Part shown: one piece after another, positions 3,165 to 35,120 of the stretch | Layout of the letters: every line of letters begins with the position of its first letter | How positions within the stretch are numbered: the stretch's first letter is position 1 | IMG/VR virus record: IMGVR_UViG_3300045988_079499 | DNA from: a virus | Strand: one strand, 5' to 3' | DNA length: 42,466 nucleotides | Program-made: the position numbers and the translations under genes | The notes under the pieces: generated by a model | What the model was told of the DNA's origin: nothing | Databases searched by the model: none | Seen by the model: the letters and a program-made list of their open reading frames with translations, nothing else

Positions 3165-5444
3165 ATGAAAAACATAGCAGAATTTCAAGGTGCTGAAAAA
3201 CTAGCAAGTAAGCTGTTAGAAATATTCGCAGCACTTGCTGGTAATGGGAAAAGCTTTGATCCACTAATAGAAGGTGTTCACCAAATTGTAGTCATTAAAG
3301 CAGAGGAACGTTTAAGCGCTAAAGGTAAAGAAATGAAAGAGATTAAAGTACGTAGCACAAATGATGGACGTGATACTACTTTTTATATTATGAAGTTTCG
3401 CAAACAAGATTGGAAAACGTGGGAAAAGATAGAAGTTGGACAGCAACTGATTATCACTCTAAAATACAGTAATGGTTTCCCTAACGTAACAATTAACCAA
3501 AAAGGAGGAGTTGTTGATAACTTACCTGAGAAACCAAACAAAGCATTAACTAATCAAACTATTTATCTTTATGATATTGAAGTATTTAAAAAAGATAACT
3601 TATTTGTTTTCAGAGATTACTTCACTAAAGAATGGACAGTTATTCATAATGATTTAGATGCGTTACGCAAGTTCTATCTAGCGAATAGAGATTCGTTGTT
3701 TGTAGGTTATAACTCACACTCATATGACTCAAATGTCATGCGCGCTTACTTACAAGGAAAAAACCCATTTCATGTGTCAAAAGCAATCATTGAAAGTGAT
3801 GATAGAGCATTAGCCTATAAAATGTTTGATACTAAGAAAACTCCACTTTTTGGAATGGATTTATATCAAGACAACAGAGGTTTTAGTTTGAAAGAGCATA
3901 GTGCTTTCATGGGTATTAATATTAAAGAAACTGAGGTAGACTTTGATTTAGATAGAGAACTAACAGAAGAAGAACAAGTCTTGAATGAGCTATACTGTAA
4001 AAATGATGTGTTAGCTACTGAAAAACGTTTTGAACAAAACATAGGCATGTTAGTAGCTAAGGCTGCAATTGCCCTATACTTTGGTTTAGATAAAATGGCT
4101 CTATCAATGACAAACGCAAACTTGACTGCTGAACTATTAGGGGCTGAGAAAACACCTGATAGAGGTGATGAACTAGATAAATATGAATTACCAGAAGGAT
4201 TTAAAATTGAGTCAGAGACCATTCGTCAGGCATTTATGACAAATAAGTTTGAGGCGAACGAAAAAGGGCATGCAAGTATTTCATTAGATGTACCACGCAG
4301 AGACGTAACAGAGGTTTTAGGAGTAGGGGGTATACATGGCGCTAAAGAGTCATTTATTCATGTAGGTAAATTCCACGCACGTGACGTAGGTTCACTTTAT
4401 CCAAATACAATGGTTTTATTTGACTACTTATCAAGAAACATCCCAGAAGACAAACGGCATATTTATCAAATGTTACTTGATGAACGTATGGAAGCTAAGT
4501 ATTCTAATAAAGAATTTACTGAAATTAAAGGGGTAAAAATTCCAACCAAACTATTAATTAATGGCTATAAACTACCTTTAAACACTAAATATGGTGCAAT
4601 GGGAGCTGAGTTTAATAAACTGTATGATCCACGTATGCGACTTCTTGTTTGTATCACAGGTCAAATGGCAATGTGGGATTTACTAGAAAAGATTGAAGAC
4701 CATGCTACTATCATTCAATCAAACACAGACGCTCACTATTACATTCCATTTAGTGAAGAAGATGAGAAAGCCATTGATGATATCGCAGATGATTGGATGA
4801 AACGAACAGGATATACCTTAGATGATGATCCTTTTAAAGCCATTTTCCAGAAGGACGTCAATAATTACTTGGCAGTTACATCAGACGGTAAAGTGAAGTT
4901 TAAAGGCGCTATTGGTCTAACAAATGGATTGAAAGTTTCTAAAGCGATTGTGTCAAATGCGTTCATTAATTATGTGGTTGGAGGTAAAGATTATAAAGAG
5001 TTTATCAATGAATGTGATGAACTACGTCAATTCCAAATGATTACTAAAACTGGATGGACGTTTGATGATACTGTAGTACGTGATGTTTATGGTAATGAAC
5101 GAAAAGCCCAAAAGGTGAATCGTACATTTGCAATAAAAGACCCTAACAAAGCTGTTGAAATATTTAAAGTAAAACGTGGAGCTGTTGTTGAAGAGGAAGG
5201 TACTACAATTATTGGTGATGATTCTTACACTAAAGGCTTGCCTAATGCGCCTGAGTATTATGCCATTGACAATGAAGCTATTGGTGAAGGATGGATAACT
5301 ATTGATGATATTGACAAAGAGTACTATATAAACCAGGTGGAAGACCTATTAGTGCTATGGTTTGGTACTAACTGGAAAGAACGGATTGAACAAGCACATA
5401 GTCAAATGAAAGAATTTCCAGAAGTTAAAAATTATATTGATTAA
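3165..5444 (+). CDS. Family-B DNA polymerase with 3'-5' exonuclease and an N-terminal extension of about 130 aa
   Basis: Exo I is YLYDIEVF and Exo II is FVGYNSHSYDSNVM. Pol motif A is RDVGSLYPNTMV (Dx2SLYP), motif B is KLPLNTKYGAMG (Kx3NSxYG), and the motif C region is QSNTDAHYY. Confidence 0.7.
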   Translation: MKNIAEFQGAEKLASKLLEIFAALAGNGKSFDPLIEGVHQIVVIKAEERLSAKGKEMKEIKVRSTNDGRDTTFYIMKFRKQDWKTWEKIEVGQQLIITLKYSNGFPNVTINQKGGVVDNLPEKPNKALTNQTIYLYDIEVFKKDNLFVFRDYFTKEWTVIHNDLDALRKFYLANRDSLFVGYNSHSYDSNVMRAYLQGKNPFHVSKAIIESDDRALAYKMFDTKKTPLFGMDLYQDNRGFSLKEHSAFMGINIKETEVDFDLDRELTEEEQVLNELYCKNDVLATEKRFEQNIGMLVAKAAIALYFGLDKMALSMTNANLTAELLGAEKTPDRGDELDKYELPEGFKIESETIRQAFMTNKFEANEKGHASISLDVPRRDVTEVLGVGGIHGAKESFIHVGKFHARDVGSLYPNTMVLFDYLSRNIPEDKRHIYQMLLDERMEAKYSNKEFTEIKGVKIPTKLLINGYKLPLNTKYGAMGAEFNKLYDPRMRLLVCITGQMAMWDLLEKIEDHATIIQSNTDAHYYIPFSEEDEKAIDDIADDWMKRTGYTLDDDPFKAIFQKDVNNYLAVTSDGKVKFKGAIGLTNGLKVSKAIVSNAFINYVVGGKDYKEFINECDELRQFQMITKTGWTFDDTVVRDVYGNERKAQKVNRTFAIKDPNKAVEIFKVKRGAVVEEEGTTIIGDDSYTKGLPNAPEYYAIDNEAIGEGWITIDDIDKEYYINQVEDLLVLWFGTNWKERIEQAHSQMKEFPEVKNYID

Positions 5445-15541: not shown

Positions 15542-15571
15542 GTTTATCTCTCCTCATTCTTTTATGTATTC

Positions 15572-15609
15572 ATTATAACACAAAAAAGGGGCGTATACAA
15601 GCCCCTTTT
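15572..15609 (-). terminator. Bidirectional terminator (9-bp stem aaaaggggc/gcccctttt) overlapped by an extended -10 TGTTATAAT, between TMP and Dit
   Basis: aaaaaaggggcgtatacaagccccttttt, then on the - strand tgtgttataatga. Confidence 0.6.
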
Positions 15610-22884: not shown

Positions 22885-24123
22885 TTATTCTCCTAGACCT
22901 TCTGAAGCTGCTGCAGCCGCTGTATCAAGAGTTAAGAATTTACCAGCTGCTGCGTCTACTTTTTTAACGTCAAAACGCATAGCTGCGGCTAGAATTTCTC
23001 CATAGTGTTGATGTTCTTGCCAACGAACTGCCATTTCATTACGGTCAAAGAATGATGTAAATCCAGCAGGATCACCCAAGAATGCTACTTTTTTATTAGG
23101 AGCTTCTGATCCAGCTAACAATTTATCAGAAAGTACAGTTACATTCAAACCAAGTAAAGATTTACCAGATTGAGCTGTAATTGAAGGTTGTAATAGGTAA
23201 CGTCCTTCATTGTCTTTCATTAAGTCTACTTCATTATAGAATGATTGAGAAACTACAAATTGTAAGTTGTATGCTGGGTCAAATTCAGTATTGATGATTG
23301 TTTTGATTTCATCCAAATTCTTAACCGTTTTAGCTGTTGCTGTTTTTAAGTTTTCAACAATTTTAGAATTTGCGGTGTTTAATGCAATGCGTTGAACATG
23401 ACGTCCAATCAATGCTCCTAAGTCCTCATCTGAATCATCTAAAGATTCACGAGAAACTGGAATTTGTCCACGATAAGTATCAACATCATACAATACATTT
23501 TCAAATTGTGGTTTGTCCAAATCTGGATTTGCTTCCAATTCTTCTACAGTGTGCATTACAGCCTCTGTTGATTTCAAAATAGGGTATTTACCAGTTGGAG
23601 TGCTTACTTTAACTGTTTGAACTAGATTTCGTAAATCCACAACTGTTTCAGGTAACATTTTTGTTTTTGTAACAATATCTTGAGGGATAATGGCGCCCAC
23701 ATCAGTTGATTTTACACCTTCTGGAAGCGCTCGCAAGTCCATTTTAGGGTTATGAGAACGTACATAATTTAAAAATCCACGAACTTCTGTTTCTGGTTGA
23801 GAGATTTCTTTTCCATCTAACACTACTTTTTCCATATTTTTTTCTTCTCCTTTTTGCTCTAATGAGCGTTTTTCTTCATCTTTTTGTTTTTTCTCTGGTT
23901 CTTTTTCTTCTTTTTTTTCTGGTTCTTGCTCTTTTGGTTCTTCTTTTTCTTCATCTTTTATTTCTTCAACGGTTTTATCTTCGTCAGGCTTTTTGTCAGA
24001 AGCTTTTTTTTCTAACTCTTCTGCGTCTTGTTTTTTAATGGCTTCAACTAAACTACGTGCTTCTTCAAATTTGCCATCTGACAATAAATCATGTGCTTTT
24101 TTGATTTGCTCTTCACGATTCAA
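22885..24123 (-). CDS. Major capsid protein (HK97 fold) with an N-terminal acidic coiled-coil (delta-like) region
   Basis: TTG start after the RBS ggagtgag. N-terminal EEK/KEE low-complexity stretch. Position after the prohead protease. Confidence 0.75.
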   Translation of the reverse strand: MNREEQIKKAHDLLSDGKFEEARSLVEAIKKQDAEELEKKASDKKPDEDKTVEEIKDEEKEEPKEQEPEKKEEKEPEKKQKDEEKRSLEQKGEEKNMEKVVLDGKEISQPETEVRGFLNYVRSHNPKMDLRALPEGVKSTDVGAIIPQDIVTKTKMLPETVVDLRNLVQTVKVSTPTGKYPILKSTEAVMHTVEELEANPDLDKPQFENVLYDVDTYRGQIPVSRESLDDSDEDLGALIGRHVQRIALNTANSKIVENLKTATAKTVKNLDEIKTIINTEFDPAYNLQFVVSQSFYNEVDLMKDNEGRYLLQPSITAQSGKSLLGLNVTVLSDKLLAGSEAPNKKVAFLGDPAGFTSFFDRNEMAVRWQEHQHYGEILAAAMRFDVKKVDAAAGKFLTLDTAAAAASEGLGE

Positions 24124-24156
24124 TCAATCTCACTCCTTCACTAGCTTTCTGTTTTA

Positions 24157-24202
24157 ATTATAGCATACATATTAGAAGTTGTGGGCTTTAAATTACAAGC
24201 CC
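24157..24202 (-). promoter_or_regulatory. Hairpin (gggctt/aagccc) followed by an extended -10 TGCTATAAT, upstream of the capsid gene
   Basis: The - strand reads gggcttgtaatttaaagccc...atgtatgctataatt. Confidence 0.4.
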
Positions 24203-24744
24203 AACAGCTCCAATTCCACTTCTAAGCGTTGTTTCTCTAATTCATTAACAGCTTCTTCTAATGAGCGTGTCGCAACTCTTACGTCTGTGTCATCGTAGGC
24301 TGGAATGGATACTAGAGAAATTTCTAATAATGAACCAATCTTGTTAATTGAACGTTTCATAATGTCTTTACCTTTTGTCCACTTGTCTTTAGCTACTGTG
24401 AAACCAAATGAGCATTGATTTAGATCACCACGTTTTACAAGTTCCATCGCGTCACGTCCATTACTTGTGTCAGGAAGTACGCAACGAAAACGTAAACCAA
24501 TATCATCTACACTCAGTTCCAGTGTTCCGCTTGATGTGCGTCCTAATAACTTACTAGAGTCGTGATCCATGAAGCAACGTACATCTGTCAAGTCTACCCC
24601 TTCTAATGCTTCTGGTGAAATTGTCTCCACAAATCCACCTAAATTACGTGATTCTTTATTAAATTTTAGTGCATATCCTTCCACTACATTATCCTCTGTC
24701 TTCTCCAGTGTCTGTAGGGCTCTGATTTCCAAGTTCTTCTTCAT
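24193..24744 (-). CDS. Prohead protease (HK97 family)
   Basis: 183 aa. Positional evidence. Confidence 0.65.
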   Translation of the reverse strand: MKKNLEIRALQTLEKTEDNVVEGYALKFNKESRNLGGFVETISPEALEGVDLTDVRCFMDHDSSKLLGRTSSGTLELSVDDIGLRFRCVLPDTSNGRDAMELVKRGDLNQCSFGFTVAKDKWTKGKDIMKRSINKIGSLLEISLVSIPAYDDTDVRVATRSLEEAVNELEKQRLEVELELLGL

Positions 24745-25894
24745 TAATATTCACATCCTGTTCTGTTTTATTTTCAGTTGTTTCTGGTGTTTGACCAAGC
24801 AAGGCTTCTCCTCCTTCAATCTCAGTAAAACCAAGATACTCACGTGCGTCATTTACCGTTAAGGCTTGTGCAAACTCAGACTTCACTCTTCCTTCTGCAA
24901 TTCTACGCAGTCTATCTTCTGTAGTATCTTGACGTAGTTTAGATAAATCTAACTCTAACTCTACTCCTAATTTTAGATTTAACTCATCACAGATAGATGA
25001 TTCGTACATCGCTATAGTACTTGCAATATAGATATCATTCTGACTGGTGTCAGATGAGTTGACCAATTCTTGACCAAACCTGCTTACTGGAATTCCTAAT
25101 ACTTTAGCAATCTGCTGGGTACTAAATTTATTGGCTTGAATTAATTTTAGTACTTCTGTATTAATTTTATTATCAGTGAACTCTTGCGAGTCATCTATCA
25201 CGATAACTCCACCGTTTCCATTTACTGCTTCAAAGTCGTCTCTAATTTGTTTCTTAGCACTGTTGTTGACTGTACCATTTAATAATTTAAGAATACCTCC
25301 AGAGAAGACACCTTTTGAAAAGAAATTATTTAGTACTTTTAACCCATTAGTTTGTAGTGATATTTCATCATTTAATGATAGTAGTGGTGAGCGTCCTAGC
25401 CAGCCATCTGTGGTACTTAATTTGAAGTGCAGAATATCCCGTGGGTCACACTTGTACATAATATTCCCATATGGCATGTTAACCTCATATCTATATACTC
25501 CTGTGACAAGGTCTCTAATGACATTAACCTGTTGTGTTTCTACAAACTCTAGCTCTTTCACACTACCATCATTGTTTCTATGAATGAGAACATATGCGTT
25601 TCCTGTTAAAATAAGGTTTGAAACCACTGCATACATCATTGTATAGTGTGATTGATTTGCCTTTGGCTCTTTATTTAACAAGTGTAATAAGCTTTGATCC
25701 ACTGAGGTGGTAGCTGCTGGTTTAAATTGACTCTGAGCAATATCCCCAGCAATAATGTTAACCCCAGTATAAATATCTGAGTTTGTCAACGCTTTGAGAC
25801 CTGTGAAATTGGTAGTGTAAGCTGTTCCAGTATTGATATAATCAATAAATTGTTGCTCTGTCACTGGGTTTCCGTTGTTTATGAATAATCCCAT
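24689..25894 (-). CDS. Portal protein (HK97 family)
   Basis: 401 aa. Downstream of terL. The C-terminus is acidic. Confidence 0.75.
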   Translation of the reverse strand: MGLFINNGNPVTEQQFIDYINTGTAYTTNFTGLKALTNSDIYTGVNIIAGDIAQSQFKPAATTSVDQSLLHLLNKEPKANQSHYTMMYAVVSNLILTGNAYVLIHRNNDGSVKELEFVETQQVNVIRDLVTGVYRYEVNMPYGNIMYKCDPRDILHFKLSTTDGWLGRSPLLSLNDEISLQTNGLKVLNNFFSKGVFSGGILKLLNGTVNNSAKKQIRDDFEAVNGNGGVIVIDDSQEFTDNKINTEVLKLIQANKFSTQQIAKVLGIPVSRFGQELVNSSDTSQNDIYIASTIAMYESSICDELNLKLGVELELDLSKLRQDTTEDRLRRIAEGRVKSEFAQALTVNDAREYLGFTEIEGGEALLGQTPETTENKTEQDVNINEEELGNQSPTDTGEDRG

Positions 25895-25897
25895 GTA

Positions 25898-26074
25898 TTA
25901 TGACCTCCCTTCTCCTGAATTGGTGGCTTCATGATATAAAACAATCGTTGGTATCATGAATAAAATACCACAGGTGAATAAACCTATGATATTTGATACT
26001 AAAAATGCTGATAAAGCGATAAATACTGTGCTAATTATATACAAAACAGCTACAATAACCGCAACAAATTTCAT
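25898..26074 (-). CDS. Small hydrophobic membrane protein (58 aa), not in the ORF track
   Basis: RBS aaaaggagcgtgaaaacATG. MKFVAVIVAVLYIISTVFIALSAFLVSNIIGLFTCGILFMIPTIVLYHEATNSGEGRS. Its stop is 3 nt before the portal ATG. Confidence 0.5.
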   Translation of the reverse strand: MKFVAVIVAVLYIISTVFIALSAFLVSNIIGLFTCGILFMIPTIVLYHEATNSGEGRS

Positions 26075-26108
26075 GTTTTCACGCTCCTTTTGCGATATTT
26101 CTAACTCT

Positions 26109-26156
26109 ATTTTAACACAAAATAGACGAAAAGGGTATGCTGTTTAAACATACCCT
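26109..26156 (-). terminator. Hairpin terminator after terL (8-bp stem agggtatg/cataccct) followed by a TGTTAAAAT element
   Basis: The - strand reads agggtatgtttaaacagcataccctttt. Confidence 0.45.
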
Positions 26157-26167
26157 CAGTTGTTGTA

Positions 26168-27940
26168 TTAGTATCCAAAACCAAACTCGCCACTATCTAG
26201 TAAGTCTTGCAATGTTGGTGCGTCATAATCGTGATATTGAGCGTCACTCATGGCATTTATTATGGCATCAAGTGAGTCAATTTTATTCCTATTTATTTGC
26301 TTATCAATCGCAACGCTATCATTGTACTCTTTAATCATTGCATTGTATGCTGCACGATTCAATAAAGGGTTATTGGTGTGCATTACTTCACCTCTACGAA
26401 TTAACTCACGCAGGGCTCTTGTTGGGGATGATAAATAATTTATTTTCTGTGGTACTTCAATTAGTTTTTTAGGGTAGGTTTTACTTAGATTAATTAAAGC
26501 CTTATCCATCATAAATGGATCATAATAAATACCAACCAATTGTAAGTCATTATAATCTATGAAATCACGTATCCAATCACACATTTCTTCTGTATCAATT
26601 AAGCCGTCTTCACGTTGGGAAATATGAATGAGGTTCATTGCCTCATACTGTCTATAGGGTATTTTATCAATTGATTGTTTATGGTCTATACCTCCAACTG
26701 AAGACACAAAACCATGTGTATCTAGTAATAACTTTTGTTCTTCTTCTATTGGGATAATCCATGAAACGGCTGTCATATCTGATGTTCTTGCTAAGTCAAT
26801 GCCAATATATACTTTTCTACCCTTAATATTATAATGATTGGGTGCTTTGACGGAATCCCACTCTTCTTTGGTTACAAAACTATCTTTAGATGATTGTACC
26901 CAAAAATTCATTTCTTTCGTTAACCAACCTGATAAATCCATTTTACCCTTGTATTCATCAAGTGAGTTACGCTTATGCTCCATCATTGAGTCATATGCTT
27001 CTGGTATTTCAAATAGTGGGTTTGATTTTATCCAATTTTCTTCATCATCTACTTCTGATAGACTATCCATTTCCCAACAAAGAGCCAAATAAGCGTCACC
27101 TTTAACCTCTTCATTAAGTAATTTTTCAACGAATGGATATTCTACAGAGTGCATAGGCCCAGTTAGGTTTTTAGTAGTTGTTGAAATTATTAGTATTAAT
27201 CCCTCTAATTGTTGAGATTGAGAGGATTCTAATACTTGAATAATTGCGTCATCTTTAGCTTCACCATATTCATCTAAAATACCGCATAATACATCTAGTC
27301 CATCAAGTGTATCAGCGTCACTTGATAGCGGTTTTACTGTTGATTCGTCACTAGCTTCAATATCATATCTACGAACAGTTGTTCTTTTTTTAACTTCTTT
27401 TGACACACTACGTAACGCAGTTAGCTGTGATTTAAGCATTCTGAAAACGATTCCTGCTTGCTCTTTTGTGTTTGCTGCTGCAACAACTTGACGACTGGCT
27501 GCTGGATTCTTACCAAACAAAAACTCATATAGTGCTATCCCTGAAACCAGTAACGACTTACCATTTTTACGTGCTAGTGAGATGTATGCTTTTCTAAAGC
27601 GTCTAGTATTATCTTTCTTTTTACGCCATCCATAGAGTAATCCAACAATAAATTTCTGAAAGTGGGCTAGTGTTGTGGTTTTGCGAGACTTAGGATCTGG
27701 AAGCATTTCAAGAAATCTAACTGGCGGTATTGCTTCCTCTGGCCTATAAATATATGGATATTTAGGGTCTTTTGAGCGTTCAATATCCTTCTGATGTCTT
27801 TCAATGGCTTTCTGTATTTTTTTACCAACTTTGATTTTAACTTTAATAGGTTTATAATAATCATCTTCTACTATATATTTACGTCCTTCAATCCATCCTG
27901 TTTCAATCAGATTGATATAATCTTGTACAAAGTCTTCCAT
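26168..27940 (-). CDS. terL: Terminase large subunit (Terminase_1 family)
   Basis: 590 aa. It has the RKNGKS Walker-A-like region and lies immediately upstream of the portal. Confidence 0.8.
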   Translation of the reverse strand: MEDFVQDYINLIETGWIEGRKYIVEDDYYKPIKVKIKVGKKIQKAIERHQKDIERSKDPKYPYIYRPEEAIPPVRFLEMLPDPKSRKTTTLAHFQKFIVGLLYGWRKKKDNTRRFRKAYISLARKNGKSLLVSGIALYEFLFGKNPAASRQVVAAANTKEQAGIVFRMLKSQLTALRSVSKEVKKRTTVRRYDIEASDESTVKPLSSDADTLDGLDVLCGILDEYGEAKDDAIIQVLESSQSQQLEGLILIISTTTKNLTGPMHSVEYPFVEKLLNEEVKGDAYLALCWEMDSLSEVDDEENWIKSNPLFEIPEAYDSMMEHKRNSLDEYKGKMDLSGWLTKEMNFWVQSSKDSFVTKEEWDSVKAPNHYNIKGRKVYIGIDLARTSDMTAVSWIIPIEEEQKLLLDTHGFVSSVGGIDHKQSIDKIPYRQYEAMNLIHISQREDGLIDTEEMCDWIRDFIDYNDLQLVGIYYDPFMMDKALINLSKTYPKKLIEVPQKINYLSSPTRALRELIRRGEVMHTNNPLLNRAAYNAMIKEYNDSVAIDKQINRNKIDSLDAIINAMSDAQYHDYDAPTLQDLLDSGEFGFGY

Positions 27941-27995
27941 TTATGTATCCTCCTTTTATACTATTCACTTACATTATAGCACAAAAAAGAACTTC

Positions 27996-28256
27996 CTAGT
28001 CTGGAAGTTCTTTTTTAAATACTTCTAAGTCTTTATATAGATAATCAAAACTTTCTTCAATTTCTGTTAGCATGTAATGTGTTTTTGGTAATCCTTGTGT
28101 AAGTCTCAATGTAATCACTTTGTTAGTATCAACATATTTTTTTAGATTGTCACATTCTGATTTGTATTCTAATAATTCTGATAATGTATAAAAGTGACTT
28201 GTTACTTCTTCTAGTTTTGTTTCGATATTTTCAAGCATTTCGTTTAATGTTGTCAT
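27996..28256 (-). CDS. Hypothetical protein (86 aa) preceded by an early-type leader
   Basis: The - strand reads tgatatacttaattcataagttaagaggaggaaacaacaATG. Confidence 0.45.
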   Translation of the reverse strand: MTTLNEMLENIETKLEEVTSHFYTLSELLEYKSECDNLKKYVDTNKVITLRLTQGLPKTHYMLTEIEESFDYLYKDLEVFKKELPD

Positions 28257-28318
28257 TGTTGTTTCCTCCTCTTAACTTATGAATTAAGTATATCATGGAG
28301 TCTATTATATTTCAACAA
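28257..28318 (-). promoter_or_regulatory. Early-type promoter-leader cassette on the late strand (TTGTTG-17-TGATATACT + TAATTCATAAGTTAAGAGGAGGA)
   Basis: The extended -10 is at 28287..28295. The leader is a match to the + strand early cassettes. Confidence 0.5.
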
Positions 28319-28346
28319 TAAAGATTAAATATTAGAATATTCTAAT

Positions 28347-28383
28347 AAAAAAAAAAGACTCCCTAGTTAGCTAGACTAGGGAG
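28347..28383 (-). terminator. Strong rho-independent terminator (9-bp stem ctccctagt/actagggag plus a T10 run)
   Basis: The - strand reads ctccctagtctagctaactagggagtcttttttttttatt. Confidence 0.8.
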
Positions 28384-28758
28384 GTGTTAGTATCTGCTAG
28401 TATCCACGCCCTACGTTAAGTGTATACTAGCTTTATGTGTGCACGTCATCAAGTAGGGTCATACTATCACACTCTGCGCCAGACACTGTGGCGAGCACTC
28501 ATTTTTAGAGAGGTGGTGTATCCTCTATCCCCGCTGACGGTTAAGGTTTCCAACTCCGTCACAGTATAACCTTAGTCATACGTTTTAGCATACTCTCGCT
28601 TGCGGTGTCACGAGAGGTGTATTAGATTCCACCTATTCATTGATTTACTTAATATGCTTTTGTCAATTGTAGTTGAAAAATTACTGTCACCCTTATTATA
28701 AAATCATACCCGTGATTTTACTTAATTAGTATACCACAACTTTTTAGTTTTGTGTAGG
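28384..28758 (-). ncRNA. Candidate structured non-coding RNA or structured 3' UTR between terS and terL (GC-rich, ORF-free, hairpin-rich)
   Basis: ~375 nt with no ORF of 60 aa or more on either strand. GC content is clearly above the surrounding ~34%. It contains several hairpins and is bounded on its 3' side by a terminator. Strand inferred from the terminator. Confidence 0.3.
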
Positions 28759-29223
28759 TTATCCCTCAAACATTTTCGCAAATGGGTCAAGTACTTCTTT
28801 CTCTTTCTCAGCTGGAAGAATAATCTTCATTCTTGAGTTGATTGTTAGTCCTAAGTCGTTGGTTGCCGTTTTAAGCTCTTTTGAATAGGAGTTCATGGCA
28901 TTAACCCAGGGGTTGGCTTTACCTGTCTCAGGATCAATAGCGCCCATCTGAGCCACCTTCTCTACTGCCTCTGCGTATAAATAATTATAGTTGCAATATC
29001 TAATGACTGTATTTACATCTAACTCACTAATAGGCAGGTCTCCCACATATGCTCCAATGCGATCCCATTCATTGAATGCTTGTGGCAATAGACCTGGTGG
29101 ATAAAAACTGAAGTCCAGCTTTTCATAATTGTAAAGTAGTTCTTCCTCCTTCTCACGCGCTTCTCGTTGTTGAGTGGTCAAGTTACCACTTTGAGCGTTT
29201 AATAGTTTTCGTGGTCTTGCCAT
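28759..29223 (-). CDS. terS: Terminase small subunit (P27 / Terminase_4 family)
   Basis: Starts MARPRKLLNAQSGNLTTQQREAREKEEELLY with RBS aaaggaggagtgataatATG. It lies downstream of the terminase-associated HNH gene. Confidence 0.7.
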   Translation of the reverse strand: MARPRKLLNAQSGNLTTQQREAREKEEELLYNYEKLDFSFYPPGLLPQAFNEWDRIGAYVGDLPISELDVNTVIRYCNYNYLYAEAVEKVAQMGAIDPETGKANPWVNAMNSYSKELKTATNDLGLTINSRMKIILPAEKEKEVLDPFAKMFEG

Positions 29224-29227
29224 ATTA

Positions 29228-29410
29228 TCACTCCTCCTTTGGTACTTCTGTAATTTCAAAATGACGATTACGTCCACCTAGTTTTGTTTTAACGTCCTTA
29301 AAATAGCCACGCTTCTTTCCATAAAATTCATCTGCTTGAAATTGCGATTTGAACTTACGTGTTTGTCCAGTCGCCAAATCTTTTACGTACACAGGTTTTG
29401 GTGCAGGCAT
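29228..29410 (-). CDS. Small basic protein (60 aa)
   Basis: ORF with RBS aagggagg. It is the first gene after the terminator and promoter. Confidence 0.4.
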   Translation of the reverse strand: MPAPKPVYVKDLATGQTRKFKSQFQADEFYGKKRGYFKDVKTKLGGRNRHFEITEVPKEE

Positions 29411-29467
29411 TTATTCTACCTCCCTTACATTATTGTTAAGTTAAAAGCTAACTCCCTTATATCTATA

Positions 29468-29511
29468 ATTATATCATATAAAAAGAACCCTGTGTAGAGA
29501 AACCAGGGTTC
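29468..29511 (-). terminator. Terminator (8-bp stem gaaccctg/cagggttc plus a T-run) overlapped by an extended -10 TGATATAAT, upstream of the packaging genes
   Basis: The - strand reads gaaccctggtttctctacacagggttctttttatatgatataatt. Confidence 0.6.
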
Positions 29512-29599
29512 AATGGTGTCTAATGGGGGATAAATCATATTAGGGAAATAACATACTATATATAGTATGAGTCCTTGATTTACAACACAAGAAACCAGT

Positions 29600-29768
29600 T
29601 TTAAATCACGTTTACGAGGGGAAAAGGGCGTTTTCGAAAGTTCGTTTTTAGAATTTCGTGCGAAGAAGAGGGGGCAGCGATTAATTCGTTATAAAAAGGC
29701 GGGCGGGTAAAAACATTTTGGGTCTCCCTAAAAATAATTTTGGCTGCGCGCTTGTTGATTTAGCGCTG
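29600..29768. other. Candidate cos region: GC-rich G-runs plus repeated TTCGT/CGTTT motifs
   Basis: gagggggcagcg at 29668..29679 and aggcgggcgggt at 29697..29708. Five TTCGT(T)-type repeats lie within about 100 bp upstream. The position between HNH and terS is typical of HNH-dependent cos phages. Confidence 0.35.
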
Positions 29769-30152
29769 TTACCTACCTCTATTTTTCCAACTGTAGCTAT
29801 GTTCTTCCTTGTTGTGACACTCGTAACAGATTGACTCTAAGTTATTTAAATCAAGTCTATGTTTCCATCCATTTGGACTTCTTAATTCTATATTATGGTG
29901 AACCATATCAGCGTTGGTGTACTTGCCTTGTGCTAAGCATACCTCGCAGAGTGGTTGCTCCATTAGCTTAGCTTTACGTGCATTCCTCCATTGAGTACTA
30001 TGATAGAACTGACTGTACTTCTTGTTGTCGTCATTATATCGTACATGTTTATTGTATTGGCTATTGTTATATCCACTATGCTCCGTACAATAGCGCTCTG
30101 GTAGCGTGACATAGTTGCGGCATGAAGCCACTGCACACTTGCGTTGTGGCAT
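29769..30152 (-). CDS. HNH endonuclease (terminase-associated, zinc-ribbon type)
   Basis: CAVASCRNYVTLPERYCTEH, then ...CEVCLAQGKYTNADMVHHNIEL...NLESICYECHNKEEH. Adjacent to terS. Confidence 0.8.
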   Translation of the reverse strand: MPQRKCAVASCRNYVTLPERYCTEHSGYNNSQYNKHVRYNDDNKKYSQFYHSTQWRNARKAKLMEQPLCEVCLAQGKYTNADMVHHNIELRSPNGWKHRLDLNNLESICYECHNKEEHSYSWKNRGR

Positions 30153-30195
30153 TGTGTTACTCCTTCCTTCTATTGTATATAAGAAAAGACTACTA

Positions 30196-30411
30196 TTATT
30201 TAGTAGTCTTCTTTGTGTTCATGCTCTTGCTAACTTTATCCACATCTACTTTAAGTGTTAGGTCTGATGCTTTGGTGTCTTGTAACGGTTTGACTGACTC
30301 AGGTTCTGGTAATGGATTAGGTACCTTTAATCGTGTATGCTTATAACAGTATTGTGCTGGTAGCTTAACTGTTTCGTTGCATCCTTCTTGATTGCAATAC
30401 ATATATGGCAT
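30196..30411 (-). CDS. Small Cys-rich protein (71 aa), a paralog of the HNH N-terminal zinc-ribbon
   Basis: CNQEGCNETVKLPAQYCYKH has the same C-x4-C-x9-C-x2-H pattern as the N-terminus of the HNH gene at 29769..30152. Confidence 0.5.
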   Translation of the reverse strand: MPYMYCNQEGCNETVKLPAQYCYKHTRLKVPNPLPEPESVKPLQDTKASDLTLKVDVDKVSKSMNTKKTTK

Positions 30412-30608
30412 TATACTCCCACCTCCTTTAGTTTATGATTGATATCATATAGCTCATTCATTACTCTTGCATATGCTTCAGCATGTTGCATATATTGTGC
30501 GTCATACATTGGAAGACCAGCTTCTAACTCATCACGTCTGGCAACTAAGCGAGCGATGTCTGTTAGTGTTGGTTCTGTTGGCTGAGTAATTGGTTCGTCC
30601 ATAATCAT
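30411..30608 (-). CDS. Hypothetical protein (65 aa)
   Basis: ORF. Confidence 0.35.
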   Translation of the reverse strand: MIMDEPITQPTEPTLTDIARLVARRDELEAGLPMYDAQYMQHAEAYARVMNELYDINHKLKEVGV

Positions 30609-30613
30609 TCCTC

Positions 30614-30796
30614 CTAGAAGTTATAATCTTGTTTCTTACGTACTATCATATTATTATCCTGTACTATCTTAATAGCGTCTTCAAGTGTTGGCTCTTTAGT
30701 ATTAGTTGATACGTTTTGTAGTTTACTTTCTAACTCACGATATTCTTTTACTAGGTCTGTTTTGTTTAGTGCTAGTAGTTGTTTGTCAGTTTTCAT
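30614..30796 (-). CDS. Hypothetical protein (60 aa)
   Basis: ORF. Confidence 0.35.
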   Translation of the reverse strand: MKTDKQLLALNKTDLVKEYRELESKLQNVSTNTKEPTLEDAIKIVQDNNMIVRKKQDYNF

Positions 30797-30944
30797 GCGT
30801 TAATTCCTCCAATACAATCTTTCCATTCTCACATACTTGATACTATTATTTAACGTTTTAGATACCATATAAGTATGCCTAGTGCAATCACGCAAATTCC
30901 AATCAACAGTGACATCATCAACAATGATACTATAATATCTATTG

Positions 30945-31136
30945 TCATCTGCCCTTACCTCCTAATAACCAACTCCATACGATAACCAGTTGTGCAATTG
31001 CAAAGCCCCACTCACCTTGCTGAAATAATTGATATGGTAACTTCATACCTAAATAGATAGCAATGTAACCGAAACCAATGATAATCAAAAGACTTAATAT
31101 AATTGATAAACTCGTGGTTAATACGTCTTTCATCAT
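30945..31136 (-). CDS. Small membrane protein (63 aa), the first gene of the - strand module
   Basis: Two predicted transmembrane segments. RBS aaagaggaggagATG. An extended -10 TGATATAAT lies at 31157..31165. Confidence 0.45.
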   Translation of the reverse strand: MMKDVLTTSLSIILSLLIIIGFGYIAIYLGMKLPYQLFQQGEWGFAIAQLVIVWSWLLGGKGR

Positions 31137-31618
31137 ATCTCCTCCTCTTTGTTTCTATTATATCATATATAAGGGATACTGTGTGAGTTAAGTAAACCAG
31201 TTATTAGTGACAAAAACTCAGCCTAAAATGGTCATTTTGTCACTAAATTGCTTGTTTTTGTCAGCGTTTTGTCACTAATTTTGACACCTAAAAACGCTGT
31301 AACCCTTGATAAATCTACATTCTTATTTTTATAATGACAAAATGACAAAATATTATATATATTAATTAAAAAATAAAGTTACTACATTATAATGTAGTAT
31401 TACAGTATATATAAAGAGTATGGTACTTTTTTTGTCATTTTGTCATTAAACTGGTCTCTTACTTAGAGTATCAAGGAATAGAGCGATTTTAAAAAAGTCA
31501 TTTTAGTGTCATATAGTGACAAAAACGCAAAATTAGTGACATTTTTTAATCTTTTCTATTGACGTTGGTTTCTATACATGCTATACTTAGTTCATAAGAT
31601 AAAGAGGAGGAAACAATT
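31137..31618. promoter_or_regulatory. Divergent control region and putative origin: iterons TTAGTGACAAAA / TGACAAAA in both orientations around an AT-rich core with a 20-bp palindrome. It holds the - strand promoter (TGATATAAT) and the + strand early promoter (TTGACG-17-TATACT).
   Basis: TTAGTGACAAAA at 31204 (+), 31235 (rc), 31267 (rc), 31515 (+) and 31533 (+). TGACAAAATGACAAAA at 31335..31350, with its reverse complement at 31431..31446. Palindrome tactacattataatgtagta at 31380..31399. Confidence 0.6.
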
Positions 31619-31855
31619 ATGACACACGAAAAATATGACGAACTACAAAAGAAAATGGACAAGCTTTACAGCGATTTTATTGATCTAGCAGCTGACACTG
31701 AATCAGCAGGCGAAGATATGAGCAAAGTTTCAGAATGGGTAGACAACAACATTCAACCAATTATTAACTGGGTAAAAGATCATGACGCTGAAGAAAAAGT
31801 TCTAGCTGAACTACAAGATGACTATAATAAATTAAAGGAGATGTTAGCATGTTAG
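31619..31855 (+). CDS. Hypothetical early protein (78 aa)
   Basis: ORF after the conserved leader. Confidence 0.45.
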   Translation: MTHEKYDELQKKMDKLYSDFIDLAADTESAGEDMSKVSEWVDNNIQPIINWVKDHDAEEKVLAELQDDYNKLKEMLAC

Positions 31856-32175
31856 TAAAATATTATACAGAAATCATGAAAATACAACTTAGAGAGTTCA
31901 AACGACTCTCTAAGTACCATGATAAGTACGTAAGTAAAATGATGGAAATGAACGAACCAGGTAATATGTCAAATCACAACACCCAACGTTACTGGCAAAC
32001 ACATAACAAAATAGAACAATCTGAGAAAGAAATGCGTATCATAATTGAAGAGTTAAAGGAGTTGAATAACCGCTTTCATTGGCGAGATCATTTACACCAA
32101 GAACGCTTTCATTTTCTAACAAAAGACGAAGAACTATTTCAGAGAATCGTAAAGCTGATGGATATTTACAGATAG
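31849..32175 (+). CDS. Hypothetical early protein (108 aa)
   Basis: ORF. Confidence 0.4.
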   Translation: MLVKYYTEIMKIQLREFKRLSKYHDKYVSKMMEMNEPGNMSNHNTQRYWQTHNKIEQSEKEMRIIIEELKELNNRFHWRDHLHQERFHFLTKDEELFQRIVKLMDIYR

Positions 32176-32186
32176 GAGGAAACAAA

Positions 32187-32348
32187 ATGACTACATTTAT
32201 TATTTTAGCAAAAAGAAACACACAAACCATTCAATTAAGCTACTTAGCTGAAACAATGAGAGGAGCAATTGATGAATTTCGCTTGACATATCCCAAAAAG
32301 AAGTATAAAATTATTGATTGTAAGGAAGCAACTAATTACAATATGTAG
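32187..32348 (+). CDS. Hypothetical protein (53 aa)
   Basis: RBS taggaggaaacaaaATG. A shorter start is preferred to the overlapping 89-aa call. Confidence 0.35.
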   Translation: MTTFIILAKRNTQTIQLSYLAETMRGAIDEFRLTYPKKKYKIIDCKEATNYNM

Positions 32349-32411
32349 TAACAAGTAAACTAACAAACAGTACACTTAGTAGTGTAATCATAACAGAGGA
32401 GGAAAATAATA

Positions 32412-32732
32412 ATGAACAATTTAGATTTAAAAGAAGGACAAACATATATTTGTACAGACACAAAATATAGATGGTGGACTGAAGGTAAAGAATATGAGGT
32501 AGTATTAAACAGTCAAGGTGAACTATGTTTAGTTGATAATGATGGTGATCGCTGGACGCGAGATTCTTTGGAGTACGATCTATGTCAATTTAAACTAAAA
32601 TACAAATCACTAGACCTAAATAAACTAACAGTTTATCAACTAAAAGAGTACGCAGATTTACAACAAGCTCTGGAGTTAGCAAAGAGCGAATTGGATAAAT
32701 TTATTGAAAGGAGTAGACAAAATGAAATTTAA
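32412..32732 (+). CDS. Hypothetical protein (106 aa), a paralog of the C-terminal half of the next gene
   Basis: L(D/N)xKEGQT..C....WWT..KEY.VV.....L..VD.DG..W....L......KLK....DLN.LT..QL.EY is shared with 32971..33282. Confidence 0.45.
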   Translation: MNNLDLKEGQTYICTDTKYRWWTEGKEYEVVLNSQGELCLVDNDGDRWTRDSLEYDLCQFKLKYKSLDLNKLTVYQLKEYADLQQALELAKSELDKFIERSRQNEI

Positions 32733-33282
32733 AATTGGAGATACTGTAAAAGGAATCACATTCGGTACATTTGGTTATGAGACTAAAGAAGGAAAAATTG
32801 TAGAGATTAATGAGCATACCCCAACATGTATGTATGCAATCAGAAGTGACGGGTACAAATGGCACCTAAGAACAGAAACTGTAGAATTAATTGAAAAAGA
32901 ACCCATACCAGTATATATCAAAAACGAACTCAATAAGGATATTTTGCTAAATAAAAAGGAGGAAAACACAATGGCCACATTAGATTTTAAAGAAGGTCAA
33001 ACATTTGTTTGCAAACGTGATGATATAGGCTGGTGGACGAAAGATAAAGAATATAAGGTTGTTTTTGATAAGTGTCATGGACTAGTAATTGTAGATGATG
33101 ATGGATGTAAATGGGATCTACCTAACGATAAGTTGTTGAATGATATCTTCAAACTAAAAGAAAAAATATTTGATCTAAACACATTAACAACAGTACAGCT
33201 AAGAGAATACGTTGGTTTAATTGAAGATAAGGAGGATGCAGAAAACTTATTAAATGAGTTCATTGAAAGGATGAGTGAATGA
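32722..33282 (+). CDS. Two-domain protein: a unique N-terminal domain fused to a C-terminal paralog of 32412..32732
   Basis: An internal RBS plus ATG (aaaaaggaggaaaacacaATGgcc at about 32971) lies at the domain boundary with no stop codon. Confidence 0.45.
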   Translation: MKFKIGDTVKGITFGTFGYETKEGKIVEINEHTPTCMYAIRSDGYKWHLRTETVELIEKEPIPVYIKNELNKDILLNKKEENTMATLDFKEGQTFVCKRDDIGWWTKDKEYKVVFDKCHGLVIVDDDGCKWDLPNDKLLNDIFKLKEKIFDLNTLTTVQLREYVGLIEDKEDAENLLNEFIERMSE

Positions 33283-33455
33283 TGTTCACTATTACAGTAA
33301 CCAAATTTAATGGTGAAGGCGTAGAAACAATATTCTACACAGATGTTAATAAGTATAAGATTACGGATGACTATCTAATATTAGAACGTAAAGAGATTAG
33401 TAGCATTGTATATATTCAAAAAGATCAAGTGTTAGAATTTGAAGTTAATTGGTAA
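33279..33455 (+). CDS. Hypothetical protein (58 aa)
   Basis: ATG overlaps the upstream stop (TGAATGATG). Confidence 0.3.
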   Translation: MMFTITVTKFNGEGVETIFYTDVNKYKITDDYLILERKEISSIVYIQKDQVLEFEVNW

Positions 33456-33533
33456 ATATTAAAGAAAAGTATAGCACAAATGAAAAGTTTGTGCTATACT
33501 TAGTACATATCAGATGAGGGAGGACTTAATGGA

Positions 33534-35120
33534 ATGAATGAATTAACGAAAATAGACTATTCAGCACCAGTTGAAGAGTTATTACCTGTTTCAAATAAAC
33601 ACTTTCCAAGTGAGGAGTTTGTGGATTTTAATTCAGAACTAGGACGAATGTACTACGGTGGGAAAGATGGTACACAAGCAAAATTTGAAATCCAACAAGA
33701 ATTGTTTATTGATAAATTTAATCAGTTAGCCTATGTGTATGCACACCCTAACTTAAACGCTCCATATGTGTATAACGCAGACACACGTATCTGGTCTGAG
33801 GTAAACCTAGGTAGTTACAAATATGCTGATTGGTACTTTGAGAACATTTTAGCGCCAAAATTTACACCACAATTCAGAAATCCAGAATTTGGGAATGAAA
33901 TTCGTAAAGAAATGAAGAAACTAGCACCTGAGTTAGCTAATCGTTCCATGACACGTGGGGAACATGCACCATTGGGTGACAACCCTAACCCAAACATTAT
34001 TGCGTTTGAAAATGGCACATATGACTTTAAAACCAATGATATACGTGAGACCAGGTTAGAAGACTACCACACACTCCAATTACCCTATCCGTTAATTAAG
34101 ACAGATGAAACAGATGAACTATTGGCTAAACAATGGATTGACTATCTATTAAAAGATCAAGCACAGACATTATATGAGTATATTGGGTATATGTATTATA
34201 GAGAGTACAAATATCAATCAATTTTGTACCTCTTAGGTAATGGGTCAAACGGTAAGTCTTACGTAGGTGGCTTTATCATGAATAAATTAATTGGTTTCAA
34301 AAACAGCTCAGCAGTTGGTCTAGACAGCTTAGCAGATAAAAACAATCGTTTTGACAAAGCTTCATTACACCATAAATTATTGAACTTTGAAGCGGATTCA
34401 AGTGCCAACTTTGTGAAGGGTACTGAAACACTGAAAAAGCTTTCAGGAGGTCTTGACGCCGTTCATGCTGAGAAAAAGGGTAAAGATGCCTTTAGTTTTA
34501 CCAACTATGCGAAATTGATGTTCTCAATGAATGAACTACCATCCTTTAATGACCGCACCAATGGATGGTATAGACGGATTTTAATATTAAATTTCAATAC
34601 CAATCTTGATACACCAGAAGCACGTGAACGCATTAATGAGTTTAACAAACAACGTGAAGAACGTGAGTCAAAAGAGCAGCTGGGTAAATTTGCCTGGTTC
34701 TGTATTCAGCAATTCAAAAAGATTTTAGACGCTGGTACAAATGGTGAAAACCCATTCACAGAAACTGAAGATATGATTGCGTTCAAAAAAGCTTATATTG
34801 AATCCAACGATCCATCTAAAGAGTTTTTGAGTGAAGTACCTGTAATTGTGGAAGATAAAGAAGGTACTGTTAACCTAACATTATTGAAGAATATCTTTAA
34901 CGTGTACACAAAAGAGAATAATATTAACAAATCAATGAACTGGCGTACCATGAAAGAATTGCTGCTGAAGCAAGGGTTTGAAGAAAAACGTACAAGTAAA
35001 GTACGTGTACTCACTGGTCTAAAAATCGCACGTAACGGAGACAATGAATCCATTAGACCTTATTTAATGAACGCACTAGCAGGGACAGAGTACGTGAACA
35101 TTTTTAACGATGTATTGTAG
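33534..35120 (+). CDS. DNA primase-helicase, P4/D5 family (D5_N plus an SF3 helicase P-loop)
   Basis: LLGNGSNGKSYVGGFIMNKL (Walker A), then ...LLNFEADS. 528 aa. Confidence 0.7.
   Translation: MNELTKIDYSAPVEELLPVSNKHFPSEEFVDFNSELGRMYYGGKDGTQAKFEIQQELFIDKFNQLAYVYAHPNLNAPYVYNADTRIWSEVNLGSYKYADWYFENILAPKFTPQFRNPEFGNEIRKEMKKLAPELANRSMTRGEHAPLGDNPNPNIIAFENGTYDFKTNDIRETRLEDYHTLQLPYPLIKTDETDELLAKQWIDYLLKDQAQTLYEYIGYMYYREYKYQSILYLLGNGSNGKSYVGGFIMNKLIGFKNSSAVGLDSLADKNNRFDKASLHHKLLNFEADSSANFVKGTETLKKLSGGLDAVHAEKKGKDAFSFTNYAKLMFSMNELPSFNDRTNGWYRRILILNFNTNLDTPEARERINEFNKQREERESKEQLGKFAWFCIQQFKKILDAGTNGENPFTETEDMIAFKKAYIESNDPSKEFLSEVPVIVEDKEGTVNLTLLKNIFNVYTKENNINKSMNWRTMKELLLKQGFEEKRTSKVRVLTGLKIARNGDNESIRPYLMNALAGTEYVNIFNDVL

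Follow-up and report, generated by a model that had tools for sequence, protein, structure and literature searches.

The stretch of viral DNA analysed here, IMG/VR record IMGVR_UViG_3300045988_079499 (42,466 nucleotides (nt), called the window below), carries on its minus strand, between the terminase genes terS and terL, a promoter-RNA-terminator cassette (28347-28756) that very probably represents a real gene for a structured non-coding RNA. Such an RNA had been proposed at this position in an original prediction made from the sequence, and the element was found to have its own predicted promoter and terminator, no conserved reading frame, and covarying helices that include pseudoknots. The virus is a lytic-type Enterococcus siphophage, whose nearest relatives over 24000-34000 are EF36P1-3 and IME-EFm5 (89-91% identity). 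Our preferred reading, which we hold tentatively, is that the element is an independent RNA-cargo cassette, or moron, whose product is a trans-acting accessory, likeliest one that binds or decoys a host factor, and that it takes no part in packaging.

Support for a conserved fold comes from the 3' part of the RNA, a pseudoknotted core of about 110 nt that we call domain D2 (28389-28498, minus strand). We aligned 28 distinct copies of D2, proposed six helices together with the terminator stem, and used as a control the same helices with their partners slid by 1-3 columns. Over the 28 sequences, 93.6% of cells were paired, compared with 21-50% after sliding; 18 pairs had changed on both sides, compared with 1-5; and the covariation score was 0.233, compared with about 0.04. 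The helices located in the window, all on the minus strand, are H1 (28489-28493 with 28477-28481), a hairpin whose loop (28482-28487) pairs with the 3' tail (28389-28394) to make H5; H2 (28468-28472 with 28437-28441); H3 (28453-28458 with 28409-28414), which is the long-range pair CCCTAC/GTAGGG already pointed out in the original prediction; and H4 (28420-28431 with 28396-28407). Pseudoknots arise where H2 crosses H3, H3 crosses H4, and H5 crosses H1. At least one compensatory change was found in each helix, for example CCCUAC/GUAGGG to CCCUCU/AGAGGG in H3 and GCCA/UGGC to GCUA/UAGC in H1, while H4 showed four pair types at one position, and the one event in H5 (GGUAUC/GAUACC) comes from phage vB_EhiS_268. 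Across the helices, G.U pairs outnumbered A.C by 50 to 18, an excess that fits an RNA made from the minus strand as assumed. A covariance model of D2 (R1) found a single copy in the window, scoring 120.9 bits. The 3' strand of the core, GAUACUAAC, could pair either with the H1 loop (giving H5) or with the invariant GAUAGUAU, and it is conceivable that H5 and the GAUAGUAU:AUACUAAC pairing could be alternative states. We also observed a 10-nt complementarity, GUGAUAGUAU/AUACUAACAC (28384-28393 with 28461-28470), that rivals H5 for the 3' strand just upstream of the terminator. A pairing between domains, ACUGUGACG with CGCCACAGU, was considered and dropped, as by inspection it was not kept in other sequences.

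Upstream of the core, domain D1 (28535-28630, minus strand) is made up of four helices: P1 (28626-28630 with 28587-28591), P2 (28611-28616 with 28593-28598), whose 12-nt loop UGACACCGCAAG is invariant, the variable hairpin P3 (28564-28581), and P4 (28556-28561 with 28535-28540), whose 15-nt loop AGUUGGAAACCUUAA is likewise invariant. P2 and P4 had been anticipated as simple hairpins; the first was found as described (CTCTCG/CGAGAG, spacing 12 nt), and the second, listed as gacgg/ccgtc, is present one pair longer as TGACGG/CCGTCA with a spacing of 15 nt. For P1, P2 and P4 in 15 distinct sequences, 94.4% of cells were paired against 30-44% with the partners slid, and seven pairs showed double changes, compared with 0-3. 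Three forms of the P4 stem were seen, GACGG/CCGUC, GUGAG/CUCAC and GGAG/CUCC. The 15-nt loop of P4 is also retained in 9184, IME-EFm1, BUCT630 and the related locus L264, where the rest of D1 is a second, different backbone. Between the two domains lies a small hairpin, H0 (28509-28526, minus strand), with the form AGAGG-8 nt-CCUCU, followed by an A-rich linker. This is the agagg...cctct hairpin of the original prediction (28522-28526 with 28509-28513), which was correct in its arms and mistaken in its loop, counted there as 7 nt instead of 8. Three hairpins alternate at this position among relatives, the other two being CGUG-GACGGCG-CACG and AGUGG-loop-CCACU.

The 5' leader (28642-28720, minus strand), consisting of an A/U-rich hairpin (arms 28699-28706 and 28713-28720) and a spacer, has a different history. 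Its 79 nt are 96% identical to the Enterococcus lactis conjugative plasmid NZ_CP082964.1 (104001-104079; 4001-4079 of our extract L342), where the copy is the antisense 3' end of an unannotated, hydrophobic ORF (open reading frame) of 86 residues, together with its hairpin. Only the window and phage 9184 carry this fragment, and the leader is a hitch-hiking piece outside the conserved RNA. On the plus strand of the window, a 33-residue ORF (28600-28701) ends in 16 residues that match the end of the plasmid ORF at all but one position.

The RNA is framed by signals of its own. A predicted promoter (28728-28756, minus strand) lies directly after the terS stop codon (TAA, 28759-28761), and comprises a -35-like TACACA (28751-28756), a 17-nt spacer, TG at 28735-28736, and the -10 sequence TATACT (28728-28733). 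The original prediction had seen here a degenerate -10/leader; it corresponds to this TG-preceded TACACA-17 nt-TATACT unit, which is kept in every relative. The motif ACACAA...TnTGnTATAAT was present in 20 of 20 unique relatives, half of which (10/20) have a second, near-identical copy about 70 nt downstream, and in an alignment of 13 relatives the promoter was the sole conserved block of the 5' part of the element. An inverted repeat, CACAA/TTGTG (28735-28754), spans the promoter from -35 to -15 and reads CACAAAA/TTTTGTG in relatives L001-L013; a dimeric regulator might use this repeat as its operator, or recombination might take place there. The predicted primary transcript of about 375 nt (28347-28722, minus strand) would start some 7 nt after the -10 sequence and end in the terminator U-run. 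Its predicted folding gave z = -2.7 and was better than that of all 100 shuffled sequences.

At the other end, the intrinsic terminator (28347-28383, minus strand) has the stem CUCCCUAG/CUAGGGAG, the conserved loop UCUAGCUAA, and a U-run at 28347-28356. The claim of a strong minus-strand terminator was thus borne out: the hairpin at 28359-28383 forms nine pairs, is followed by a T-run, and had no stronger rival in the half of the window that was scanned; it is one-way, acting on the minus strand only, and the plus strand is without a T-run. Its stem, helix 7 of the D2 alignment, covaries as CCCAC/GUGGG, CUCCC/GGGAG and CUCAC/GUGAG. A near-identical terminator, with the core CTAGTCTAGCTAACTAG, was also observed in unrelated, larger E. 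hirae phages of 72 kb (EH93P1 and relatives; L014, 1491-1535), and seems to be a shared regulatory module. Beyond the terminator, a new promoter (TTGAAA-17 nt-TATACT with TG; 28287-28315, minus strand) starts the cassette of an 86-residue ORF (27996-28256, minus strand), which has its own terminator (a terminator-like hairpin at about 27995-28020) and is followed by the terL promoter. Hence the terminator, fresh promoter and 86-residue ORF that were described between the element and terL are indeed there in the window; in most relatives the RNA terminator directly abuts the TGCTATAAT promoter, a ribosome-binding site, and terL. The 86-residue ORF probably encodes a helical protein, has no PHROG match, and occurs also in EF36P1 and L264 and is absent from most relatives. 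Only promoter- and terminator-like pieces of the element recur elsewhere in the window. Junctions in which a T-run is followed by a TG-extended -10 sequence, as in TTTTTATTTGTGCTATAAT, were observed again at 31144-31172, 15558-15587 and 27942-27988 on the minus strand, and their recurrence suggests a series of insulated late transcription units.

In keeping with the original prediction, no ORF of 60 or more residues is present within 28384-28758, the longest being 49 residues on the plus strand and 31 on the minus strand, and the region is rich in G+C (0.47 at 28400-28599, against 0.26-0.38 in both flanks). The composition profile showed no skew shift at the element. It is very hard to credit that a small protein, from the 31-residue minus-strand or the 49-residue plus-strand frame, is the product: depositors annotated ORFs of 30-130 residues in KEN21 and KEN18, and an antisense ORF of 46-79 residues recurs over D2, but there are one-base insertions or deletions inside the conserved core, a stop codon interrupts the ELETL frame where P4 has its GUGAG stem, ORF length and frame are not conserved among relatives, and the minus-strand ORFs are without a ribosome-binding site. 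A decayed homing-endonuclease or other gene was also rejected, since tblastn with eight neighbouring proteins gave a best E-value of 0.055, on the antisense strand.

Examination of relatives showed that the element is an insertion with a restricted distribution. By blastn, the element was found in 22 Enterococcus phage records, with four further matches to the terminator only, and overall it is present in about 25 lytic phages of the E. faecium type; in carriers it always lies between terS and terL, in sequence that is unannotated or filled with calls of 30-residue ORFs. Relatives of terS drawn from IMG/VR and from genomes fell into three groups. In group A, the E. faecium-type lytic phages (terS identity at least 75%), the terS-terL gap is 320-950 nt and D2 is present in almost all; the exceptions are L263, which has the promoter, one 45-nt hairpin and the terminator, L264, in which D2 is replaced, and L259, with a partial D2. 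In group B, the E. faecalis-type phages (IME-EF4, phiSHEF and relatives; terS 55-66%), the gap is 56-620 nt, and neither nhmmer nor the covariance model found D2. In group C, prophages in Enterococcus genomes (terS 57-60%), the gap is 13 nt and there is no element. Approximately 40 prophage relatives have this 13-nt gap, and their terL proteins belong to the same domain families. Gap length thus runs from 13 nt in prophages through 56 nt in the group B phage L274 to 170-950 nt in carriers. That terS and terL are normally adjacent was therefore correct, and the insertion between them is real because prophage relatives have a gap of only 13 nt.

The slot has the same layout in group B, namely promoter, hairpin modules, terminator and promoter, with different hairpin modules. 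These group B modules are common to more than 100 phage records, and several modules are common to groups A and B, each with covarying stems; in one of the shared modules, the inner motif GCGCCUCUUAACAAUGCG is kept within five different outer stems. L274 has the terminator-promoter junction alone and no RNA, and the intermediate contigs L332, L336, L337 and L333 have non-coding inserts whose content is different again. With the covariance model, neither the E. faecalis-type phages nor the intermediate phages and the prophages gave a D2 match. A 26-nt core pattern matched only four metagenome contigs, and D2 is therefore a narrow family within a wider habit of placing RNA cassettes in the terS-terL slot. 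Almost every lytic member of two phage groups has kept the element.

The domains behave as separable units. D2 occurs without D1 in at least eight loci, and D1 without D2 in L264. Tandem duplications of D2, with differing sequence variants, were found in KEN21 (L006, 1347-1718) and in L339 (1875-2240); in KEN21 the first copy is without a U-run because the junction falls inside the first terminator stem (AGTGG|ACGG). The slot also holds protein cargo, including HNH genes (DELF1, L259, L260) and the 86-residue ORF (window, EF36P1, L264). In the IMG/VR contig L253, an ORF of 229 residues (3842-4531) with a DPPY motif, resembling N6-adenine methyltransferases, lies between terS and the RNA. Among the relatives, no protein-coding gene was found replacing the RNA at this position, and some carry one in addition to it.

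Comparison with known families did not identify the RNA. With Rfam 15, no match in the window reached the gathering score, no match to the prohead RNA (pRNA) model was found at E<=10 in 28200-28900, and in 18 related loci no module had a match at E<=0.1. Neither ARAGORN nor the Rfam models detected a transfer RNA or transfer-messenger RNA, and known riboswitches, ribozymes, GOLLD and ROOL were set aside, as there was no Rfam match. Comparison with CRISPR repeats of E. faecalis and S. pyogenes, tracrRNA and the 16S 3' end, using approximate query sequences, gave a longest match of 9 nt. The loop motifs CUUAAC and ACACC were tried as repeated binding sites and rejected, since a count of 6-mers over distinct contexts showed no enrichment over the A/T-rich background. 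Searching other phages for the P4 loop 15-mer (GAGTTGGAAACCTTA) gave about 110 IMG/VR matches (L134-L250), which proved to be ELETL coding sequence and chance; exact-word searches with this loop are misleading because ELETL is a common coding word in several unrelated phage groups. A search with a 22-nt degenerate core pattern returned mostly chance matches. No tandem repeats were found within the element, the sole array being a 7-nt A/T repeat at 28319-28341, outside it. In the searched literature we found no paper describing the RNA. Neither the folds of D1 and D2 nor a modular slot for RNA cargo between terS and terL, recurring in well over 100 Enterococcus phage genomes, appear to have been described in Rfam 15 or the searched literature. 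Stand-alone phage non-coding RNAs and morons are both already known kinds.

Several lines of reasoning lead us to favor an accessory RNA cassette. The RNA itself is the likely product because it has a dedicated promoter, which is often doubled, and for the same reason the plain terS 3' untranslated region offered as an alternative in the original prediction is unlikely. Selection on the fold is shown by the compensatory changes that keep six D2 helices and three D1 helices. An accessory role is suggested by the dispensability of the RNA, the rapid exchange of its modules, content that follows the host clade, and accessory neighbors that include an anti-restriction-type methyltransferase. On this reading, a non-coding RNA of about 375 nt, built of separable modules (leader, D1, small hairpin and D2), would be made abundantly from a promoter of the host sigma-A type and would act in trans, as an accessory tuned to the host clade that may bind or decoy a host protein, a defense system or an RNA-processing system. 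The near-identical promoters and terminators on either side would serve as recombination points at which modules are shuffled. A riboregulator and an anti-defense RNA, both named as alternatives in the original prediction, are possible. A more specific version, which we regard as unlikely though worth stating, is that the slot is a locus of RNA counter-defense, holding interchangeable pseudoknotted decoys or aptamers, with D1 and D2 directed at E. faecium-type hosts and other modules at E. faecalis-type hosts, and with the shuffling driven by an arms race.

A number of observations weigh against the accessory cassette and its extension. The homologues represent a small number of lineages (for the D2 model, the effective number of sequences is 1.28), and because of this many of the compensatory changes were inherited together and are not independent; the control with slid partners preserves that relatedness, yet the separation stays clear. 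No sites in the phage complementary to the invariant D1 loops were found beyond chance, no loop motif was enriched, and no target or partner was identified. The promoter, the transcript ends and the abundance are all predictions from sequence, and the case for counter-defense consists only of context and the speed of module turnover. The main rival is a cis-acting element of the late operon. In one form, the folded RNA would alter polymerase initiated at its own promoter and carry it past this terminator and those further on, in the manner of HK022 put RNA or the lambda PR'-6S-tR' unit; in the other, it would just insulate terS from terL and stabilize the 3' end of the terS message. We consider this possible and on balance improbable. 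The element heads a structural gene block of about 20 kb and sits between a promoter and a strong terminator; the terminator-promoter junction is kept in both phage groups; a partial copy of the terminator stem that could pair alternatively lies upstream in eight relatives; and a large IMG/VR survey lists candidate structured RNAs upstream of terL as possible cis regulators (PMC10690425). However, terL, or in the window the 86-residue ORF, has its own promoter right after the terminator, so that read-through is not needed, and in the window a whole extra cassette separates the RNA from terL. L274 keeps the junction without any RNA, the phage groups differ in their RNA content even though the RNA polymerases of their hosts are close relatives, and no antiterminator pairing was evident in the window, by inspection only; a 3' stabilizer, moreover, would need neither its own promoter nor pseudoknots. 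Somewhat more doubtful is the idea that the locus holds recombination debris and selfish RNA modules that persist at a hotspot without benefit to the phage. The 79-nt plasmid gene fragment inside the transcript, the HNH endonuclease genes in the same slot of relatives, duplication junctions in short repeats (KEN21), and the absence of the RNA from some phages would all fit such a history, but the compensatory changes in D2 and D1 helices, the invariance of the 12-nt and 15-nt loops across two different D1 backbones, and the near-universal retention of the element by lytic members of the two groups would not be expected from it.

Two further explanations are both very improbable. One places a site at the DNA level, either a terS binding or pac-like site or a transcription-activated origin of replication, for which the nearby packaging genes and the tandem promoters in relatives could be cited. 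The physical ends of the genome, however, map elsewhere. The ends of IME-EFm1 have been determined experimentally, and consist of a 9-nt 3' overhang, GGGTCAGCG, flanked by ATTAATTCGTTATAAAAAGG and CTCTTCTTCGCACGAAATTC (PMC4445525). Both flanks match the window exactly (flanked region 29651-29699) and bracket 29671-29679, where the overhang reads GGGGCAGCG. This cos (cohesive-end) site, placed by homology, lies between the HNH gene and an ORF of 60 residues, about 910 nt from the element and not inside it. In addition, the compensatory changes, with G.U pairs that favor one strand, point to a single strand that folds, and there is no skew shift at the locus. The other explanation, to which we give slightly less credence still, is that of a packaging RNA acting with the terminase or portal, like the prohead RNA of phi29, and a packaging-associated RNA was what the original prediction had favored on the strength of position. 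Every carrier has the RNA at the same place between terS and terL, but the RNA is absent from prophages and L274 despite homologous terS and terL, L263 has only a single small hairpin, non-homologous modules fill the slot in E. faecalis-type phages, and duplication, loss and exchange affect the domains independently. No pRNA model matches the element, no mutually complementary pair of loops was seen, and the phage has a classical set of terS, terL and HNH genes with a 9-nt cos site, as opposed to phi29, in which packaging uses a terminal protein and there is no terS (PMC5066667). The packaging role is therefore not supported, given the absence of the RNA from relatives with homologous terS and terL, its replacement in group B, and the missing pRNA match.

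The genes around the RNA cassette are all on the minus strand. Upstream of it are the HNH endonuclease gene (29769-30152), the 60-residue ORF (29228-29410) and terS, of the P27 family (28759-29223); downstream, after the 86-residue ORF, comes terL, with ATPase and nuclease domains (26168-27940).

Morons, known first from HK97 and the lambdoid phages, are independent promoter-gene-terminator units that sit between late genes in tailed phages. The element resembles them in its predicted promoter and terminator, its place between genes that are adjacent in relatives, its variable presence, and the accessory cargo nearby; it differs in that the cargo is a folded RNA of shuffled modules rather than a protein gene, and in that the carriers appear to be lytic and not prophages. 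Promoter-stem-loop (PeSL) units of T4-type phages are mobile regulatory cassettes in which repeated promoters and stem-loops flank variable cargo and seem to mediate shuffling; the promoter-spanning inverted repeat is a point of likeness, while the phage group is another one and the cassette here has RNA as its cargo. Pseudo-ToxI of phage PhiTE and RNA anti-CRISPRs are small non-coding RNAs used by phages as decoys, and type III antitoxin RNAs are pseudoknotted. Unlike pseudo-ToxI, the element has no tandem repeats of about 36 nt, and, with approximate queries, no match to an E. faecalis or S. pyogenes CRISPR repeat or tracrRNA was longer than 9 nt. The phi29 pRNA (RF00044) resembles the RNA described here in that it is a structured RNA a few hundred nt long, encoded by a phage and made from a promoter, and in that its sequence diverges among relatives. 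However, its model does not match here; it is essential, and belongs to protein-primed podoviruses without terS, whereas the Enterococcus RNA is dispensable in relatives with homologous terminase and shows no evident intermolecular loop pairing. HK022 put and the lambda PR'-6S-tR' unit share with the cassette a promoter, a short non-coding transcript and a strong terminator just ahead of the late structural genes, and with put the only agreement is one of position, a promoter lying on one side and the terminators of a long operon on the other. Here, the terminator is succeeded by a new promoter, terS is located upstream, the RNA varies by group, and there is no recognisable put-like unit of two hairpins. 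Nor does the element have the arrangement of a riboswitch or cis leader, as a terminator, a new promoter and, in the window, a further ORF cassette part the RNA from terL. GOLLD and ROOL are large, ornate RNAs of phages and prophages in Lactobacillales and other Firmicutes (PMC12286853), and they too are pseudoknotted RNAs with much structure, associated with phages of broadly the same hosts; the RNA here has no match to their Rfam models, is much smaller, is made of separable modules, and keeps a fixed terS-terL position. Finally, the IMG/VR survey (PMC10690425) reports candidate structured RNAs, without names, that lie upstream of terL. These resemble the element as predicted structured RNAs beside terL in viral contigs, and the D2 family too is found in IMG/VR, but the survey offers neither a structure nor a function for them.

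Phages of these groups are widely isolated and sequenced for possible therapeutic use on E. faecium and E. faecalis, and in more than 100 deposited genomes the corresponding stretch of 200-750 nt is blank or has been given spurious ORFs of 30 residues. If the RNA is made as predicted, it would add a new fold with multiple pseudoknots to the short list of phage non-coding RNAs, and would show that a moron can carry RNA as its cargo. The natural variants that lack, duplicate or swap the RNA provide a ready-made genetic series. If the modules tune the interaction with the host, they would have a bearing on host range and on the engineering of therapeutic phages.

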